A stretch of DNA of 64,000 nucleotides from Sphagnum compactum (Eukaryota). The translations under genes were made by a program, and so were the position numbers. The notes under the pieces were generated by a model, which saw only the letters and a program-made list of their open reading frames with translations, did no database searches and had not been told where the DNA came from. Where the stretch lies: assembly GCA_965153455.1 (NCBI GenBank), contig OZ234494.1:4588001-4652000 (forward strand). The letters run 5' to 3'. Every line of letters begins with the position of its first letter. The first letter of the stretch is position 1. Positions 24,301-38,067 of this stretch are shown here, piece by piece.

Positions 24301-27229
24301 ACTTGTGGGCATCAATTTACCTTGTGAGGGTTAACTTGTCACCAATGTTCCTATCAGGCATCCAATCCATATAATCTAAACTTACATGACCATTTCGACC
24401 CAATACCTTCCCTTACTCCTAACTTGCCTACATCAGCTTGGGCTTGGGTTGCGACATTAAATGTCTTTGGGTTTTTCCATCTTGGCTTTCATTATTTTCA
24501 ACTATACAATCGCATCCCTTTCGCTTTATGACGTGATGCATAAATGGCATTTTGTTTTCCACTTAATAAATTGGCACAAGACCCTTGTGACATGGCAGTG
24601 TGCATTTGTTCATTTTATTACACCAATGATGTTTTGTTTTGCCCCTTTGAGGCGGGGTCACCAGGCATAAGAAAACGAAGATCTGGCTTAAATGTTTTTA
24701 AACACGCAATTGGTAAAACCTGCATGAAGAATTCTTTTTACGGGCCCAAGCTTTCGCAACAAGTTCAAACTCAATGCCTGTTACCCAACATGATCTTCCG
24801 ATTCATAGACGGCCTTTACGCAGTTTATTTTTAGACATGCAAAAAATACTCTTGAACAAAATGTGATTTGGCACCATTTTCTTTTACACCCACGTCTTGC
24901 AACACCACCTTAGTTTTCATCGTTTTACATCCTAAATCAAACGACTTCTTCCTGCTTTTTTTGGAAGACTACGAACCAAACCAAGACCTTGAATTTTCAT
25001 ATGATTCCTTCAAGTTAACATTTTAATGCATGCTGAATTTATCTGCAAGTGGTCCTTCTAGGATGGTATTCGAACACCTCTAAGATTATTTTCACCCATA
25101 AAATTTTACAAGTGGATTTCCATAATTGTTTCAACTTTGTTTTCATATCACACAAGGTCACATTCCACGTTGAATTGCACATATCCTTGGGGTAGTTTGC
25201 CTCTTAACCATGACCAAGCCCTCATGTGGAGTTCGTCCCATTACTTTAAGGGAAAAGTTGTATTGATTCACAAGCTGCGCTTTATGTTCTCAATTTCGTG
25301 ACGCCTTTGCAACACATTTCTCCCCACACTAATTCAGAGTAGCAAACAAGGGTGGATGTGAAACAATAATTCATGGCATTAGGTGCACCTTGGACCTTCA
25401 CCCCGAGTGGGTTGTTTTATAGCTAGACATTATTTTCATGTTTTTAATCCGATGTCAAGAAGGGTCATATTTCAAGAACTTCATGCAACAAGTGAGGACA
25501 TCATCAACTTATCCCCATTGTTTGTGCATTTTATGCATTTGAATCTCCCTTGTTTTATAATCACCATAACCATGATGGTAATGTCATAGTCATCCCATTT
25601 GCCATGAAAACTTGTCAAGCTGATCCTTTGGGAGGGGCATTATTTGCTTTAGTTCACCTTGGGGCACTACGTTTTACAACTAGTCATTTTTTTATTGTCT
25701 ATTTCCATCCATTACAGATGACACTCACATCATCAGCCCTCCTTCCATTGTATCCTCTACACATGAACATTTTCAAACTCAGATATAGAGAATTCTGTTC
25801 AACCTCAAAAATGTGTAGCATGGTCATCTTTTGGCTTACCACTTGATTTCGACACCCCATCCTAGTTTAACACACCATCATAAAGAATTAGAGTCTTGGA
25901 GGTTTCATTAAGCACCTCATCATTCAAATCATCCTTCATCAAAGATACCTTATTAAAAAATGTTTAGCATGTTCACATTCTCCTTAAACTAGGCGATGTT
26001 CAAACAACCTTTGGAATTATAATTCATTGTTAATGCAACAACCTTTGTATGTATTACATTGCACACCATCCTTTCCCACCTTCATAAATTCATTTGTTTC
26101 CTTTGACTCCCTTTTCCTTCAAATGTTTGGACACCTCTTGGGTCCATGGTCCTTTGATAGCTTTAAAGGACCTCTAGTTTGTAAACAAACCTTTTTCCCA
26201 ATAACTTTAAGTGGCATCGGCTTCATACTGACATCCACCATCGCCCCAATAGCCTATTTAGGGATTTGGGCTTTTGTAGTTTCAATCACAACAATTAGGT
26301 TCATGGTCAACCCATGTCCTTTCCTTTTTGAAACATTAATGTGAGTTGACAACAACACCTCAAAGCAACATGCGATCTTTTACCACCCTTAACATGGGCG
26401 TGTCTCCCTCCTTTTGAACAATTCATTAGACGACAAATGGTTCATTTTCAAGGTTCCATTTCAAAACATTTGCACCATCATACCTTCTTTAACATGCTCT
26501 TTGATGGGATATTTGAAGCCCATCATGCTCAAATTTTGTCATGTTTTGGCCTTCAAGTGGGCGTTTGGTTTATAGCTCGACTAATCTTCTGAACCTTTTG
26601 ATTATCTTCCCCAATTTTTTCCATAATGATTTGGATGTGATTCGAACTACCACATCTTTCAATTGTAAGCCTCCCCCAATGTGTGTGCACACATCCCATC
26701 AACCCTATGGGTATTGTGAACCATGGATTATAGCTCAACAATTAGTTAAGCTTTAGTTCCTTAAATTTCCTTAGTACTAATGATTTGAATGCTTATAAAC
26801 CTTCAAGTAGTGATTATTAAAAGTTGAATTAGTTTTGGTGATATTTCTAGGCATAGAGTAATTCTTTATTTCAGTGGATGTAACACTTAATTAGTTTAGG
26901 ACTTAGTAAACCTTTAAAAGTACATTATCCTTTTTAGTTTGTAGAGAAGGGGAAGGGGATGTAGAATTAGATGTGATTTATTGATATATAGGGAATACAA
27001 GCCCATAATTAACAATATTTCGCATGACAAGGTTGAGTTAGTCTGTAGAATGATCTTCAAGCACTAATGATGTACTTGTAGGATTTTTAGGATGTAGTCC
27101 TAATACATCTTTATTTAGTTTCACTTCTATCAGACTTTGAAATAGAATCAAAATCAAACGTAAGTAGCAACAGTTCCGCCTAAGTAGCCTCAAGTGAATT
27201 ACAACTGAATAACTGACTAAAAGGATAGA

Positions 27230-27643
27230 TCACAGTTGTAAAAATTCTAAGATGCAACGGATGGTGCGAGCGAGGTACTTGGCTCGATGCTCCAGGGGAA
27301 GTGAGTTGATCGGGCCTCGTAGCCAACGATAATGGCCGTCACCGAGAACCCACGTTCGACAATGGAGACGGACATCATCATCTTCGCACTGGCACTCTTC
27401 AAACCTTTCTGGCGCGGCTCCACGAGCAGGAACAAACTCTAGATAAATGGCTAAAGCATGTGGGTTAGGAGACAGTCGACGATCCCATACCGAACGAGCA
27501 ACTCGAGTGCGCACCACTCTCCTGGGCGATTCTTTTTCGCGCGGCCGTTGAGAAACATCCAAGTCGAGCGGTGCTTCTTCAAGCTCTTCTTCTTGTACAG
27601 GTGCGACCGGAGGATTTGAAGGCGTAGCATCATCGTCCGCCAT
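27230..27643 (-). CDS. Uncharacterised 137-aa protein encoded inside the LTR-type insertion
   Basis: ATG at 27643 (gtcATGg) to stop at 27230; GC/CpG-rich island in AT-rich flanks; upstream polypyrimidine tract plus TGCAG acceptor (AG at 27657-27656) and TATA-like TTAAATAAAA (27734-27725). Acidic/Pro N-terminus, Arg-rich middle, CxC..HC..H C-terminal half. Confidence 0.55.
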   Translation of the reverse strand: MADDDATPSNPPVAPVQEEELEEAPLDLDVSQRPREKESPRRVVRTRVARSVWDRRLSPNPHALAIYLEFVPARGAAPERFEECQCEDDDVRLHCRTWVLGDGHYRWLRGPINSLPLEHRAKYLARTIRCILEFLQL

Positions 27644-28537
27644 GACTAATTGCGCCTGCATCAACAAAAACCAAAAAGGTAGTACGAACAAGGTGGTACT
27701 TGCGTTCAAAAAGGGTCGAGGCCTTTTTATTTAACAAATTAGGGTAGGCGTAAGGTGTGGGAATGACGACGGAACTTCATCAAAACTCGAACACCCTAGA
27801 TCTAAGGGATTCATCAAACCCTAAATTCAACGGTGGATCTAGAAGTATGTGAGAGTTTTTTTTTTGTGATGCAAATTGTAATTTCAATTTACTATGTACT
27901 ACATAGTTAATTAGTGCATAGTAAAGTAAATAGGTAGGGAATATCAAGGAGTAAATGTTACACGGAAATGTTACTTCAACCATTGAATTAGTCAAGTAAG
28001 AACTCAAGGACTCTTCCTTGTTACTACCGATAATTTATCCTAGTAGTTAGTTATTTGAAGTAATTAGGATGAAGAAGTAGGATGTGAGGGTCAACGGACG
28101 GAAAAGATAAGGATCAAGCTCAAGAGACCTCATCAAGATATCCAAGATAAGGGGGAGGTTGGATCCTCCAATCCCATTCGTCATGAGGATTGTCATCCTC
28201 TTTGATTGGAGGATGGAATATCTCTTAAGTTTCATTGAGCCCATGGATTCTCATCCTAATTTCAATTGGATGGCCATTCATTCTCAAATTTTCATTGGCC
28301 CTTGAAGGATGAGGAGGCCATTGATTGGTGCAAAAGGATTTCAAAGCTTGATTGGACAAGGGAAAGAAGCTCAAGGAAGGTCATGGAGGCGAGAAAAAGG
28401 AGAAGGCATGGTGTGTATGGAAAAAAAAGAGAAGAAAGAGGATAATGAAGTGGGAGAGAGGTTGTTAGTTCTTGTGTGTGGAAGTGTTCATGAAAAGGTT
28501 ATGAAAAAATGAAGCATGGAATGGAGTTGTGTGTAGC

Positions 28538-28907
28538 AAAGAATCGTAATGAAGCCTCTGGACTTTTGGTTTAGTTAATTGTTTCTCTCAAATCCACCGT
28601 TGGATTTGTGTCAAAATTATATCAGTTTTAGTTTGGAAGGTGTAAAAGCTCCTCCCAAAAATTCAACATCATCGGTTTTGTTGTGAGGGAGTTGCAGGTG
28701 TTGGAAGTAGAGGGTGTTGAAGAGGGGTTCATGAAAGAATCGTAGTGAAGCCTCTGGACTTTTGGTTTAGTTAATTGTTTCTCTCAAATCCACCGTTGGA
28801 TTTGTGTCAAAATTATATCAATTTTAGTTTAGAAGGTGTAAAAGCTCCTCCCAAAAATTCAACATCATCGATTTTGTTGTGAGGGAGTTGCAGGTGTTGG
28901 AAGTAGA
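28538..28907. repeat. Tandem duplication, 196-bp period, 2 copies
   Basis: 28538-28711 vs 28734-28907: 174-bp core with 4 A/G differences by eye. Confidence 0.95.
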
Positions 28908-31900
28908 AGAGGTTGAGATGTTTGTTTTGTTTTCCTCAATGAAAGCAAATGGTTTTTAGTTTCGGGGCTTAACTTTGGTCAAAGACATAAAATAAAATAA
29001 AAACTCATGAGATTTGGACACAACGCATTAGATTTTTTTTAGTGAATTTCATTACTTACTTCGAACCACCTTACTTGTTAGACTACACTACATAGTAGTT
29101 CCACTTCCAACCGGGTCTTTTATTGTGAGTGCATATCTTAGTGGTGAAGGTGTGCAATAAATCTTCACAGGTATCCACCTCTTGCGTCACGCTCATGGCA
29201 ATGAGCGCACGGGGACCCATGATGTAGTTTGTGACATCTTTGCCACCATTGTGCAATATGTTGGCTTTCACATGGAACGAGAACAATTACATGCACTTCC
29301 TTCAACCAATTTCAATTCTTCCCGTTGACAAATCGACATTGTGCTCACCAACGATGGAATCTGCACCTTAGCTAACATTCTCATAGCTAACGCAACACAT
29401 GCATAATTATTTCCCCAATCTTGCACAATTCAAGGATTTGCTACCTTCGATGCAACTAAAGCCAAAGAAAAAAGCTACGCGACTCACACCTCATTGACCA
29501 ATTCTTCCCTCTAACAATTGAAATATTTGAATGTTTACACAAATAGGTTGATGTGTTCTTACACAAATGTGCCAATATTATTTGAAACCTAAAAAGACCA
29601 CAAGGCTTTCCCTTTTTTGTCTTGGTTAATTTTTTTGTCAAAGAATTTCAATTACATTGCAAAGAACACAAGCATCCTCCATCTTAAGTTAGGCAATAGC
29701 AGTAGGCCTAAGTACTTTCCGACTTCCACCCCTTCAAAACACACCCCCCATTGCCACGGTTGATTTACTACAAGCTATTAATTGTTGAGATGGAAAGTTT
29801 TTGACATCTAGTTTGTACTAACTTGACGCCTTTTAAATTATCCTTTGTTTTTAATATTTGTGTAATACGCAGAGTGTTTTATAAGTTAAGCTTTACAAGG
29901 TTTTGATGAATTGAGCAACACCAAGCAAATTGAATGAAAGAAGAATAGAATAAAAGAACAATAAAATGACACCACATAGCCAATAGGAAAGCAATAGAAT
30001 GAGCACCAAATAAGTTGAGCAAAAGCCGAAGTCCACCAAGCAAGCACAATAATAGATCACAAGCAAAACACAAACATAAAACAAACTAAGCAAAGCAACA
30101 CAATGCAAACAATGATAAATCAACACAAAATAAAAGAAAACAATGTGAGATAACATGGTGGAGTCCTTCCCTTTTTATTCTTTATATTCTCCTCCTCTCA
30201 GGTGCATGCATGTGACAAATGGGATGTTCATGTTTACCATGCTAGCAATGTCCAATGGCCATCTGCACTAACTTAACACCTCACCTAAAACCTAACTTAA
30301 CTTAACCTAACCTATAGAGCTAGCATTCCGGGGGCTGTGGCTCTCCCTAAATGGAGTTCAAGGTGTGAGGTTCTTGAGGGGAGGGGGTTTTGTGCCAGTG
30401 ACAAAACCACCAATTCCTTTGTGCTGCCCAATTCTCACTCCTTCTCACCCTCGAATTATTACCCAAAAAAACCCAGTAATGAACATGCAGGGTATTACTA
30501 TATACAAGTGTTGTGTGATTTGAATTTATAAAGAACCGCTGGTTCTGGTTTTTTAATAACCACCCAACACTAGTATATACATCTCACGCAATCTTTAGTT
30601 GAGAACCTCTGTGTTCTCGTGCTTTTATTTGCCTTGTATTTCTTGGGGATGGGTTGTGGTCCCTGCCATTTTTATATACAAGGTTTTTCTTTTTCTTTTT
30701 ATAAAAATGTTTTGTAGAAAAAAAAAAAAAAAGCGCGCCGCCGGAAAGGGTAAGGTGGCTTGAAATTACAAAAGGGTTGGTGAAATGACTTATGCACACA
30801 ATCAGAACATTCTGAAAAGGGCGGTTTCTTAAAAAGATGTGAGAAGGTAACTTAAGTCTCCTTGAAACAATGGAGCTACAAGTGTTGGTGGGCCTTTGAT
30901 CCAGAAAATTCATTCCCCATTTCAAATCAATTTAAATTCCTGGTTTGAATTGGAGTTCATCAAATTTCAACAGTTGTTTTGTTTTTCTTTTTTGGCGAAA
31001 GGTGAAACTGATTCAAAATTTTGGCAAAAAAAATAATCCACCCCTTTCTTTTTTCTCTCTCAAAAACAAGTAACCAAAAATTTCAACCCACTTATTTATT
31101 GAAAAAAAAAAAAAAAAAGAGTCCACAGGAATCACAAGTTCAATATTGGTTGAATATATTATGTGTGGTTGGAAATTTGAAATAACGGCAAAAGTCTCCC
31201 AAGAAGTCGTCATTCATTGCAAGGACAAATATGAAGTCATTGAAGAGTTCCCAAAATTCACTCCACATGTGGATACATAAGAGATCATTTTTCAACACTA
31301 GGGTTCAGGGTCCACTTGGGTATAGAAGGTCCCTCTTGGACTTCTTATACCATGAAATTATGTTCTAGAGCCCCCATCGGTCGTAAGAAGCACATCAGAA
31401 AAGGATAGAAAAACCTGAAAAAAACGATAAAGTTTTTTTCTTAAGATAATTTTAAAGTCATTTTTTTAATTAGATAATTAAGTGAGTAAGAATAATTTAG
31501 TTACAAATTTCCAAAATTTAAAAATGTGTTAAGGAAAGGCCCATGTTCTAGCCCTTGTTGTTAGTATAATCTTTTATATCTTTAGACTTGCCGTTCACAC
31601 ATGCGGTGAAAACTTTTGTAGATGTGGTGGTCATTGATGGCTTTGCAAGATATGATATTCTCTCCCCCATTCTACCATGGAACGCCTATTTTAAAGGTGC
31701 ACGCCACGGAAAGGCAACTAGCCTATATATGAAAATCTCCTCCACCAAAGAGATAAGTAGGAGCTTATGATGGTGGAAATTTAATTTTTTGATGCTTCAC
31801 CTAAATAAATATATGTTGATGATTAATTTGTTTATTAATTACCCCAACAAAAGTTTGGAATTCCAATGGCCCCAAAAGGAAGGGCCTATGTTTTAGTCAT

Positions 31901-34825: not shown

Positions 34826-37053
34826 CCTTCTCCTATACAACATGCTCAAATGAAATAGCCAAACAAAATAAGAAGCAACTAATGAACTCATCTGGAATTT
34901 GGAAGCTTCTTGTAATGCCTGTCAAACCATGGGACCCATTCCTTGACATCAACAAGTTGCACGCCAGTGTGGGTACGGTCAAGAGGTGCCTTGAACAGAG
35001 CTCAATTGGGGGTGGGGGTGCTGGGTGTATTTAGGACCTTTTTGTGTGTACTGCCTACTTCCTTCCTTCCTTCCTTCTTGTTCAAAATAGGTGGTGGAGA
35101 TTCGGCTGTTAACATTGTCCTCTGGAAACCTGCAGACCGCCAGAACTGAAGCATCTACCCATGTGTATGGAACAGTTTTTTTTCTTCTTAATTGGCAAAA
35201 TTTCACCCACAAAAAAGAAAGTATTAAAAAAATTTAAAAACAAGTGATTGTGGATGTTTTCAGTTGCCAGAAGTGAGAAAAGGAAAAAAGAGTAAACATT
35301 GTCAGATTCATTAACTTGGATTTCATCTTGTAGCCAAAAATATAGAAAGATGAATAAAGATTGATACTTTGTTTCTGGTTTATAGCCAGATTTGGCTAAA
35401 TCTTCCTAAATCTTCCTAGGCTGATCACCACTTTCGCTACAAACAAAAGTTCCTAAAAAAAGCCCACTGCTCCCCCAAACTAGGCCTACAGGAGATGCTG
35501 GCCAGTATGTTCTGTGTGTCCTCTCTTGGGTGTAATCTGATGAGTTCCGCGACTCTGGGCACTTACAGCCCATCATTCACTATACAAATCCACTGGACAC
35601 ACAAACACATATATCATTAGGGGAGCACCTAGATACCTTTGCCTTTTGGCTAAGATCAAGTGTAGTATTAGGGGAGCACCTATATACTCCACCACAAACT
35701 TTGGGGGAGGGGGGGGGGCGTTTCTCCACCACAAAAATGTTCTTTGTTCTATTGTAATAATGCATTGTCATGGGTGCTTCCTTATTAGGGTTCAAGCTTT
35801 TTTGGCGAGCTATTTAATTGTGAATCTCATCTCCTATGTGATCATTGCCATCAAAAAAGAGTCACAGTCACATATGTCATTTCACAAATTTCTTTTGGGC
35901 CATACCCATTTGTTGGGATCTTCAAGGCGGTTCATAATTTCCATTCAAGTTGAGTTGAGTTGTGTCTGTGGCAGCCCAAGGTTTGTATAGTAACTTACAC
36001 TAAGTGGGTAATATACATATACAAAAGCCACCAAGTTTTTGTAGTGTCTCTTTGTTGTTTTGTTGTAAAGCTGGGCTGAAGAATATTGTGAATCTGTTTT
36101 TGTGCCAAATGTTTTGAAATTGGTACTTTGTAAGTTACACTTGTGTGTGTGTGTCTCTCTCTCTCTTCTAGGGAGCTTGATCACTTTTATCATTTTGTTG
36201 CCTGCTTTTGCTTTGCTTTGCTTTGATTGATCCTCAAACCCCAGACCTCCTTTCGTTTTCACTCCCAAGTCTCTTTGTGTCATAAAGTTGTCAGGAAAAA
36301 AACAGTTTTTTATTTCCTTCTTTTTTCTTCTTTTTTGGGGTTTGTGAAAGACGCTTGTGTGTGTGGCTCAGCTTCTAGCTACAATTTTGTTGAGCTCCAA
36401 ACTTTGTCTTTTTGTTGCAATTAGTGGTGGTTTTCATCATCAAGCTAGCTAGCTAGCGCTTTGATCCGGAGTGGGGTAGTCAACACAAGGATTCATCAAT
36501 TGAATCTGTAATTATCCAAGCGCGAAGAGCTATGTGGGTTTGTTGGTTGTCTCACATCTGTCGATGTAGGTTTGTGCAGAATTGACAGAGTCGATCTCGT
36601 GCTTTCAACTTAGGTTTTTGTAGAGTCGATGTAATCATTCTTGTGCTCAAAGCCAAGCCCCAGTCTATTCATTTTTGGCTGGATCATCATCTTCTTGTGT
36701 CTGGAACATTTTTTGCAGGTGGGTAGTCCTAATTTCTGCCTTGGATCTGTCGACTCTCAAGCCTCCTCCAGCTGGTGTAGGGTTGGTTTTCCTTCCTATT
36801 TGTCTTTCTAGTTTCTCTTGCAGCTCTTACAGGTCTCCACAGAAGCATATTATCCACAACAGTTGACGATTTTCTAGTTTGAGAGGCAGTAGGTCTGTGC
36901 ACTCTAGATGCTTCAAGTATGTGAAGGTCTCGAGGTGCAGGATTCTGTACAATTAAAGCATACCCATCGCGAGCTTTTCTGTGTCGAAGAAAACCTTAGT
37001 TCCTGTCTCGGATTTTTTCCCCCTCCTTCAAGATCTTGTTGCTGAAGGGTAGT

Positions 37054-38067
37054 ATGGAAAGCAGCCCATCTTTCAGAGGTTTATATGTTTCCTCAAGAGT
37101 TAGCCCTGTCTCTACCAAGTCCCGGTTGCCTCCGGCATCGCCACCTTGTCTCTCGCCTCGCAGTCCCCATACAGCCCAGTCCCCCAGCAGCTCCGGCTCT
37201 ATCTTCTGTTACTCCCCAAGCTTGGATTACAGCTGCAGCAGCATCGCGGATCAGCAATCTCTGCAGGGATCGAGCTCATTTTACGGTAAACAGTTCTCTT
37301 GGCCGAGTTGCAGCAATACAAGTCCGAAGTTCGAGGCATTTTACAGCGCCGAGCAGCCTGTTGCTGGTTCTTCAGACTTTCCTGCATCATCATCATCTAG
37401 TCCATCTGAATCTCCTCCGACCGAACCCCCCGAGTCCTCACCATCGTCGCCACCACCTAGTCCTTCAATTTCGAGAACCAGCTTGACGTACTATGAGCTT
37501 CTTGGGGTTGCACAAAACGCAACGGCGAAGGAGATTCGAGTGGCATACCGCCAGAAGGCGCTTCGTTACCATCCGGATGTGGCTGCACCTTGGGGTGAAC
37601 AGCAGAGGTTTAATGACATCTTCGCTGAGATCAACGAAGCTTATTCAATTCTCACGGACCCTCACAGCCGATCTCTTTATGATGCCAAGCTGCTTGCTTC
37701 TGCTTCTTCGCGCAGATTCATACGAGGTCCTCGGGGGGCCCCTGTAACGATTCCAGCCGGCTTCAACAGCTACTCTTACCAGTTCACAGGGTTCATGAAG
37801 CCGGATATCTGGGCTGTAGCTGGTGGCAATTCCCAGCAGGTTGCTGCTGCTGCAGGTGGATCATCAACTAGGGCTAGTAGTTATCCAGGCTCCTCAGTTG
37901 CACCTGATCATGATCATCAGGACTCGGGTCATGGTTCCAGTACTCCTCCTCCTCCTCCTCATTGTTCCACTTCTTGTTCAGGCTCTGCCACAAGCTCAGT
38001 TGACACTAGAAACATTTCTAGTTCCTGGCATGGACGAAACTGGGAGACTGATCAGTGCTGGTGTTGA
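37054..38067 (+). CDS. J-domain (DnaJ/Hsp40) protein, plastid DnaJ11-like, 337 aa, intronless CDS
   Basis: ATG at 37054; Ser/Pro-rich transit-peptide-like N-terminus; J domain YYELLGV....T.KEIRVAYRQKALRYHPD....F.EINEAYSILTDP..R.LYD; C-terminal RNWETDQCW motif typical of the plant DnaJ11 group. Confidence 0.92.
   Translation: MESSPSFRGLYVSSRVSPVSTKSRLPPASPPCLSPRSPHTAQSPSSSGSIFCYSPSLDYSCSSIADQQSLQGSSSFYGKQFSWPSCSNTSPKFEAFYSAEQPVAGSSDFPASSSSSPSESPPTEPPESSPSSPPPSPSISRTSLTYYELLGVAQNATAKEIRVAYRQKALRYHPDVAAPWGEQQRFNDIFAEINEAYSILTDPHSRSLYDAKLLASASSRRFIRGPRGAPVTIPAGFNSYSYQFTGFMKPDIWAVAGGNSQQVAAAAGGSSTRASSYPGSSVAPDHDHQDSGHGSSTPPPPPHCSTSCSGSATSSVDTRNISSSWHGRNWETDQCWC

Follow-up and report, generated by a model that had tools for sequence, protein, structure and literature searches.

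The stretch of Sphagnum compactum DNA examined here (64,000 nt; contig OZ234494.1, positions 4,588,001 to 4,652,000 of the forward strand; hereafter the window) carries a 2455 bp repeat unit (26715–29169) that resembles a long terminal repeat (LTR) and encloses a single gene on the minus strand. An earlier note on this DNA had described it as a young element of the solo-LTR type with its own intact, CpG-rich gene of unknown family. The copy in the window is an ordinary member of an old repeat family and not a young, privileged one, and the family carries a conserved, selected gene within its LTR-like unit. The explanation we favour, which as a whole we regard as moderately probable, is that the unit is likely a solo LTR of an old, high-copy moss family and that the open reading frame (ORF) inside it is a repeat-borne gene under selection.

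The termini of the unit, read directly, are TGTGAA...TTCACA, giving TG...CA ends with a 6 bp terminal inverted repeat, and they are flanked by two identical 5 bp target-site duplications (TSDs; GGTAT at 26710–26714 on the left and at 29170–29174 on the right). In the window sequence the junctions read ...ccctatgGGTAT / TGTGAAcc...cttCACA / GGTATccacc. Contigs of a DNA sequencing run (X1) bridge both flanks without the unit, for example from 26708 to 29172, which shows that the 2455 bp unit was inserted into another repeat. The flank-joining contigs (26708–26715 / 29172–29282) carry from a few to about 40 extra letters at the junction, and represent paralogues of the host repeat that lack the interruption, or possibly an empty allele. 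The summed DNA depth of X1 is in the thousands over the unit, compared with about 6–26 for single flank contigs. Self-BLAST of the window revealed no second copy of the unit, only an internal 183 bp repeat pair, which corresponds to the tandem repeat described below. The unit contains one sizeable frame, on the minus strand, and the others are short. The TG...CA insertion with a perfect TSD and without gag or pol, as described in the earlier note, is confirmed by these data; we infer that it is a single insertion, probably the solo LTR of a retrotransposon-type repeat, and the strand assigned to it here (minus) is that of the ORF.

The ORF and its protein family

The ORF (27643–27230, minus strand) encodes 137 aa followed by a stop codon, and a form of 143 aa begins at an in-frame ATG further upstream (27661). 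The two forms are equally frequent, with 54 each among 177 stored proteins. The clean minus-strand frame of the earlier note is therefore real, with the addition of an alternative start. It lies well inside the TSD-flanked unit, 515 bp from one end and 1526 bp from the other.

Out of 1548 candidates in a word-indexed protein search, 1506 clusters matched at E ≤ 0.01. The 120 best-matching clusters show 72–92% identity and are mostly 137 or 143 aa in length, and the window protein differs by 8% from the nearest known protein. An exhaustive search of 50%-identity representatives returned 151 proteins at E ≤ 1e-3, with full-length relatives at about 30–50% identity present among them, and a profile of distant members added 1392 further proteins, among which is another large family, 140 aa in length and found in sources of the same type. 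Homologues are multi-copy in both Physcomitrium patens ("Predicted protein"; A9U498, A9U3L7, A9U4D8, A9RUF6 and others) and Ceratodon purpureus ("hypothetical protein", e.g., KC19_8G082100, the 90% cluster of which has 138 member sequences). Several sequencing runs that contain parts of the stretch are likewise labelled as moss metagenome. Among viral contigs, 12 pattern matches were found and none was confirmed. On sequence grounds, the ORF represents a real gene family and not a chance frame, and this family appears to be restricted to mosses and to be repeat-borne.

The alignments of the family (A1 and A5) show a variable, acidic or proline-rich N-terminus, a basic cluster and then a conserved C-terminal block, xLVIxLEV...FEGxFE...GxGHYRWLxGP...Y(L/V)xxTIRRILxFLx(L/I/M). 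The position of the C-terminal stop is common to nearly all full-length members, and the window copy retains all nine (nearly) invariant residues of A5. The longer gene models P0329 and P0338 are two adjacent copies joined together. The Cys and His residues of the window family vary in distant homologues, so the idea of zinc binding, and with it the metal-binding role suggested in the earlier note, was dropped.

No Pfam family matched the window protein at E values up to 10, in keeping with the unknown family of the earlier note and without any gag or env match, and 22 family members searched at E values up to 1 gave a single match (DUF1289, E 0.17) that was read as noise. The best match in a sequence-profile search of the PDB had an E value of 1.1, the ESM Atlas contained no usable match for the window protein or for P0356, and Rfam and tRNA scans of the unit region returned nothing. 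AlphaFold2 models have a predicted local distance difference test score (pLDDT) of 47.8 (whole protein) and 55.2 (C-terminal 84 aa). The acidic and basic N-terminus of the family members is disordered, and from these low-confidence models a C-terminal domain of about 80 residues is predicted to have two to three beta strands and a C-terminal helix. Comparison of the C-terminal model with about 48,000 chains by VIA-align gave a best Z of 2.8, which is meaningless at such model quality, and the homodimer prediction, which scored 0.02 where the mark is 0.32, gave no verdict and is given no weight for or against a dimer.

A second LTR-like family, about 2.3 kb in length, is represented by L023:2083–4430, which starts near 2083 with TGTGAGGC. 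Its ORF (L023:3573–3992) belongs to the 140 aa family, is 83% identical to P0356 and contains stops. Read in the sense of the ORF, the order of features is repeats of about 190 bp in tandem, about nine CCAAT-containing 20-mers, the sequence CTATAAAT about 100 nt before the ATG, the ORF, and a tail of about 0.45 kb. The unit is inserted into a gypsy reverse transcriptase (RT) frame, which adjoins the tail end. At the DNA level, the L023 and window units align over only 41 nt and 36 nt, both in the conserved C-terminal part of the ORF, and the gene is therefore the one thing that both families have kept.

A tree of 36 rows chosen from 447 stored proteins, with two-domain proteins split into halves, was left unrooted. 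It separates a low-copy clade (P0280, P0290, P0355, P0445, and both halves of the Ceratodon protein KAG0576639.1 and of P0267) from a clade containing all of the multi-copy families, with 100/99 support, and within the latter it groups the window family with the 140 aa family (96/91). Some of the low-copy homologues, P0273 (KAG0576639.1) and P0267, have the domain tandemly duplicated in one protein. The low-copy clade may represent host genes that either arose from the element by domestication or supplied the gene it carries; since the root is unplaced, capture and domestication are both possible, and an ancient host origin of the ORF is likewise possible. A transduplicated host fragment does not match what was found, as the low-copy homologues form a separate clade at about 30% identity and the ORF is present in every examined copy and under constraint.

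Copies of the repeat and selection on the gene

At least 600 protein-pattern matches in JGI metagenome contigs yielded at least 589 confirmed stretches, the best 80 of which make up the locus sample (L001–L080). BLASTN homology to the unit starts at element base 1 and stops at base 2455 in locus after locus, at 74–94% identity. There are 22 rows with complete copies, corresponding to 20 independent loci, and among these 20 the 5 bp TSD is perfect in 11, has one mismatch in 2, and has two or more mismatches in 7. The commonest termini are TGTGAGGA...GGCTCACA, with a terminal inverted repeat of 6–8 bp. When flanks were compared all against all, likeness next to the boundary was that of same-locus duplicates (at least 99.4% identical) plus one pair of loci, L018 and L039. 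In this pair a segment of about 500 bp (81% identical; L018:1138–1640 and L039:6212–6710) adjoins the 26715-type end in opposite orientations.

The window unit is probably one member of an old family with hundreds of copies. As to the solo-LTR claim of the earlier note, the TG...CA ends, the 5 bp TSD and the many copies with the same ends stand; no paired-LTR element was found in the 80 loci, so that the label itself is deduced from these features. No sequence like a primer binding site (PBS) or polypurine tract (PPT) recurs beside the unit ends in the locus flanks. "Solo LTR" is thus most likely the best-fitting label, judged from the termini, TSD and copy behaviour.

In one locus, L035, a 5′-truncated, 80%-identical copy is separated by 15 bp from a CCHC zinc knuckle and protease-like and RT-like frames that follow it in the same direction. 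Gag lacks its capsid part there and the copy is cut by another repeat, so that the arrangement probably reflects nesting and not a 5′ LTR. A Pfam search of ten L035 open frames gave only one sub-threshold match, to Stig1. The other repeat (L035:4703–5718) is internally palindromic, matching in both orientations around one point, has cut the second copy of the unit there, and also occurs in at least 13 other loci (L007, L080, L063, L003 and others). Inverted pairs of the unit are found in three loci (L022:1–5750, L036:68–3178 and L067:2254–6444), tail-to-tail in L022 and head-to-head in L036 and L067, with a spacing of 293–1071 bp. At least two of the copies in these pairs have their own perfect TSD, and the pairs suggest a preference for insertion near existing copies.

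All 83 stretches in the 80 loci, which had been found by way of the ORF, align over the ORF, whether open or broken, and 80 of the 83 cover bases 1–414. Spread of the gene by the repeat, as put forward in the earlier note, is borne out in that every family copy examined carries it. Selection was estimated by the Nei-Gojobori method from 2278 pairs of 68 unique, ungapped, full-length copies (73 including that of the window before duplicates were removed). The ratio of nonsynonymous to synonymous substitution rates (dN/dS) falls with divergence, from 0.81 in pairs less than 5% divergent to 0.51 (5–10%), 0.38 (10–15%), 0.28 (15–20%) and 0.23 (more than 20%), as expected if the old differences arose under purifying selection and the young ones after insertion. 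The other five frames have values of 0.39–1.35 in the deepest bin, and the only other falling series is that of the antisense frame sharing third positions.

Insertions and deletions give the same picture. Gap openings per copy number 0.17 in the ORF versus 4.18 and 5.71 in equal-sized flanks, i.e., they are about 25–34 times rarer. Base identity to the window copy is 0.884 in the ORF, 0.903 in the preceding 414 bp and 0.871 in the following 414 bp, and in 6 of the 9 gapped copies the indels are all in-frame. By our own arithmetic, less than 1% of copies would be free of indels at the flank rate, against at least 73 of 589 candidates observed, and ascertainment therefore cannot explain the low gap rate of the ORF.

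Single copies, by comparison, decay. The frame is open in simple form in 31 of the 83 stretches, and of the 68 unique ungapped copies 25 are open and 43 contain between one and three stops. Of the 65 nonsense changes, about half arose at CpG-containing Arg codons (29 CGA>TGA and 3 more CGA>TAA or CGG>TAG). Three by-catch copies that had not been chosen by way of the protein (L022_4035, L035_5760 and L067_3188) are all broken, which indicates that single copies decay. The gene is probably kept intact by selection in the lineages that generate new copies, with the inserted copies then decaying neutrally. The earlier note had named random disruption of the ORF or a dN/dS near 1 across copies as refuting its proposal. 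This applies to single copies (at most 25 of 68 open, all three by-catch copies broken, dN/dS 0.81 in close pairs) and not to the source lineages, which are constrained (0.23 at depth, few indels). The window copy is one of the minority still open, and possibly functional to judge from its letters; a younger or better-protected status is without support.

The ORF and its 5′ side form a GC- and CpG-rich island (27201–27800), as the earlier note had stated. GC content is 0.49–0.53 over 27200–27699 versus 0.30–0.34 alongside, and the observed/expected ratio of CpG is 1.06, 1.16 and 1.22 within 27201–27800 versus 0.31 across the window. The number of CpG per ORF copy ranges from 18 to 38 in the family, with 34 in the window copy, and the means of open and broken copies (30.6 versus 29.7) show no difference. 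At four positions that are CG in most copies, the window copy reads TG or CA. With these four sites, a CpG count in the middle of the family range, and nearest ORF copies that are 92–95% identical, the description of the element as young is not upheld.

Transcription and direction of the element

The ORF lies in what would be a compact transcription unit, placed between a half of the element that contains tandem repeats and a 0.5 kb tail. The TATA-like sequence TTAAATAAAAAGG (27734–27722, minus strand), also pointed out in the earlier note, precedes the ATG at 27643 by about 80 nt and is exact in 43 of 68 copies. An AATAAA-containing motif (27118–27106, minus strand), a candidate poly(A) signal, follows the stop by about 115 nt and is exact in 42 of 66 copies. 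Promoter and terminator roles for these motifs are presumed from their placement. The tandem repeat (28538–28907; period 196 bp, 1.9 copies, by Tandem Repeats Finder) is confined to copies of the window family (86 of 86 matches, in 80 loci), so RNA from it comes from family members.

RNA and DNA depth was estimated from four runs (X1 DNA, X15, X16 and X23) placed on the stretch at 85% likeness. The moss metatranscriptome contigs of X15 reach depths of 195, 386, 277 and 204 in four bins over 27205–27800, and fall to 26, 2.4 and 0 towards the 26715 end and to 53, 22 and 32 towards 28247. The DNA depth of X1 varies within about fourfold across the unit, and the X15/X1 ratio over the ORF is about 10 times as high as over most of the rest of the unit (our own division). 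This profile fits a transcript of about 0.6 kb between the TATA-like and AATAAA motifs, although overall the support from RNA is modest. A splice acceptor in the 5′-UTR, part of the earlier description, comes down to a CAG|G-like string before the ATG, and no splice joint was found there in the three RNA runs. According to the favoured explanation, the protein would be an accessory factor expressed under the LTR's own promoter, by full elements and solo LTRs alike, and would act in trans, probably in the nucleus, to the benefit of the element family.

A number of observations weigh against this explanation. A shared internal region was found at none of 81 independent ends (51 + 30), and the 80 loci showed no paired LTRs, PBS, PPT or adjoining gag-pol. 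No longer fused proteins (316–2000 aa) were found at E ≤ 0.001, a weak negative, as the known 340 aa two-copy protein P0329 was missed as well. The loci were picked as the best protein matches and are biased to intact, well-conserved copies, which inflates the open fraction and possibly lowers dN. Differences from the window copy are 1.4 times as frequent at CpG sites of the ORF as at its other sites; elsewhere in the unit the ratio is 1.7–3.0, on few sites, and these values are compatible with weaker methylation-driven loss in the ORF, while hypomethylation is not shown by them. The structure models are too poor to have any bearing on function. The contigs of X15 and X16 carry no strand information, and DNA carry-over into them is possible. 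X23, which consists of stranded poly(A) raw reads with the same species label as the best DNA runs (about 12% of the run was read), covers the ORF only about 1-fold, in mixed direction and with a small excess of plus-strand first mates; 3 of its 177 placed reads are at least 99% alike. Finally, in X23 the tandem-repeat part (28397–28843) is covered 13- to 77-fold, with every first mate on the minus strand. Under the usual library convention, which for X23 is not calibrated on a known gene, this RNA is probably plus-strand and antisense to the ORF, and would fit an LTR with plus-strand sense.

This last point leads to an alternative that we consider possible, on balance doubtful: a solo LTR with plus-strand sense, in which the ORF is an antisense gene with its own promoter within U3 and the RNA of 28.5–29.1 kb is an R-U5 transcript. 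Besides the contrast between the X23 coverage of the tandem repeats and that of the ORF, it can draw on the depth of X16 (718–1033 over 28546–28843 and 466 at 28993–29141) and on an AATAAA-type run near 28990 on the plus strand, and it would give the canonical arrangement of a long U3 and a short R-U5. Against this, the would-be R-U5 (28270–29169) is the most variable and gap-rich part and the would-be U3 the best conserved, the reverse of the usual pattern, and in both families the tandem repeats and TATA (and in the second family the CCAAT-like 20-mers) stand upstream of the ORF in the ORF sense. The best-conserved non-coding part is the middle of the unit, about 27870–28170, from which transcription seems to be divergent. 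The upstream repeats and TATA of both families, together with the variable half, would favour the ORF sense as the direction of the retrotransposon, and the RNA abundance favours the opposite direction. RNA coverage of the unit is by far the highest over 28397–29141, in X23 as well as in X16, with most reads less than 95% alike, and its RNA therefore stems from other family members.

If the units of about 2.4 kb were themselves mobile, as non-autonomous LTR-only elements with one gene that obtain integrase in trans, the absence of a shared internal region, the complete copies with their own 5 bp TSD, the recurrence of independent insertions close together in inverted orientation (L022, L036 and L067), and the existence of two families common only in the ORF, yet alike in size and layout, would all be accounted for. 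We hold this to be improbable. We know of no replication route that regenerates a single LTR from its own transcript, and young full-length elements, which resemble one another, interrupt metagenome assemblies made from short reads, so that the sample is biased to old solo copies. Seven of the 20 copies lack a TSD, as expected if some came from LTR-LTR recombination, and mosses have efficient homologous recombination, which would favour the formation of solo LTRs. A broader proposal, to which we give only a small chance, is that mosses harbour a lineage of 2.3–2.5 kb mobile LTR-like units in which nothing is conserved but a gene for a protein of about 140 aa with a new type of fold, and that these units exist, and perhaps spread, essentially without internal regions. 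The gene would then be the payload of a novel non-autonomous, integrase-dependent element, or else encode a trans-acting (e.g., counter-silencing) factor that solo LTRs go on supplying once recombination has removed the remainder of the retrotransposon. Least probable of all, to the point of being very unlikely, is a captured host gene fragment or chance frame carried passively and without function for the element. The low-copy clade with the two-domain Ceratodon protein leaves room for a host-gene origin, and the many broken single copies and the low expression in poly(A) RNA suit a passive cargo. However, the ORF is in every examined copy and not in a few, its dN/dS at depth is below that of all the control frames (at least 0.39), indels in it are 25–34 times fewer than in the flanks, its length and C-terminus are kept across mosses at about 30–50% identity, and it is the sole part common to two otherwise unalignable families.

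DNA transposons of the GingerRoot and Ginger type were also considered and rejected. The unit has a 5 bp TSD and a terminal inverted repeat of 6–8 bp; according to the available text of the source, TSDs are 6 bp in GingerRoot and Ginger2 and 4 bp in Ginger1, and the terminal inverted repeats of GingerRoot are 100–150 bp (PMC6839031).

Known systems and neighbouring features

The moss gene belongs with the known accessory genes of retrotransposons and with LTR-borne ORFs such as that of mouse mammary tumour virus (MMTV), and no earlier description of the family was found in the literature searched. Plant LTRs are treated as non-coding promoter and terminator modules, and the extra ORFs that have been catalogued are internal. 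The available text of a review places the additional ORFs (aORFs) of plant LTR retrotransposons in the internal region (PMC7264820), and its text contains neither "in the LTR" nor "within the LTR" nor "moss" (PMC7264820). A large survey, in the portion available, scored extra ORFs (eORFs) of at least 250 codons (PMC6317226). Plant aORFs and eORFs (the antisense aORFs of Grande, RIRE2 and Retand, and ORF1 of Ogre) resemble the moss ORF in being family-wide, without a known function and without similarity to host genes or to gag/pol, and, like it, they are conserved across related families and species, as far as these two sources extend (PMC7264820, PMC6317226). The moss ORF differs from them in having 137–143 codons, in lying inside a terminal-repeat-like unit and in being found so far only in mosses. 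It shares with aORFs the presence in all or most copies, but not the internal position, as it is situated 515 and 1526 bp inside the ends.

The superantigen gene (sag) of MMTV resembles it in position, being a coding ORF within the LTR and so carried by every LTR copy. It is a gene of an animal retrovirus, located in U3 and read from spliced or LTR-internal promoters, and no Pfam family, superantigens included, matched the moss protein. The anti-silencing protein VANC of VANDAL (Mutator), the analogy drawn in the earlier note, is likewise an accessory protein that is borne by a transposable element (TE) and dispensable for the chemistry of transposition; it is a different protein, belongs to a DNA transposon and has a tested function, whereas an anti-silencing role of the moss protein would be hypothetical. 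If the plus strand is the LTR sense, the moss ORF would be antisense and expressed from within the repeat, and so comparable to HBZ of human T-cell leukaemia virus type 1 (HTLV-1), ASP of human immunodeficiency virus type 1 (HIV-1) and ORF0 of L1. These are lineage-specific and only partly inside the LTR, whereas the moss ORF is wholly inside the unit and conserved across moss genera. A literature search on LTR-borne ORFs found MMTV sag and no plant case among the matches listed, and one on the TEs of Physcomitrella and Sphagnum found no description of the protein family or of an LTR-borne moss ORF. The LTR-borne accessory gene proposed in the earlier note stands as regards a conserved, constrained gene in every copy examined, and it is the LTR part of the name that would depend on the termini, TSD and copy behaviour.

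If the favoured explanation is right, the terminal repeat would be a new site for an accessory gene of a plant retrotransposon, and solo LTRs, usually seen as dead remnants, could go on carrying a gene and possibly making its protein, with implications for the persistence of TE families where genomes efficiently remove internal regions. Physcomitrium patens has homologues and allows gene targeting, making the function directly testable.

Outside the unit, the window has few long open frames. It also includes ordinary genes, such as one with a DnaJ-type frame of 355 aa at 37000–38067 on the plus strand (motif YYELLGV...YRQKALRYHPD), so that the TE island sits in a gene-bearing region.

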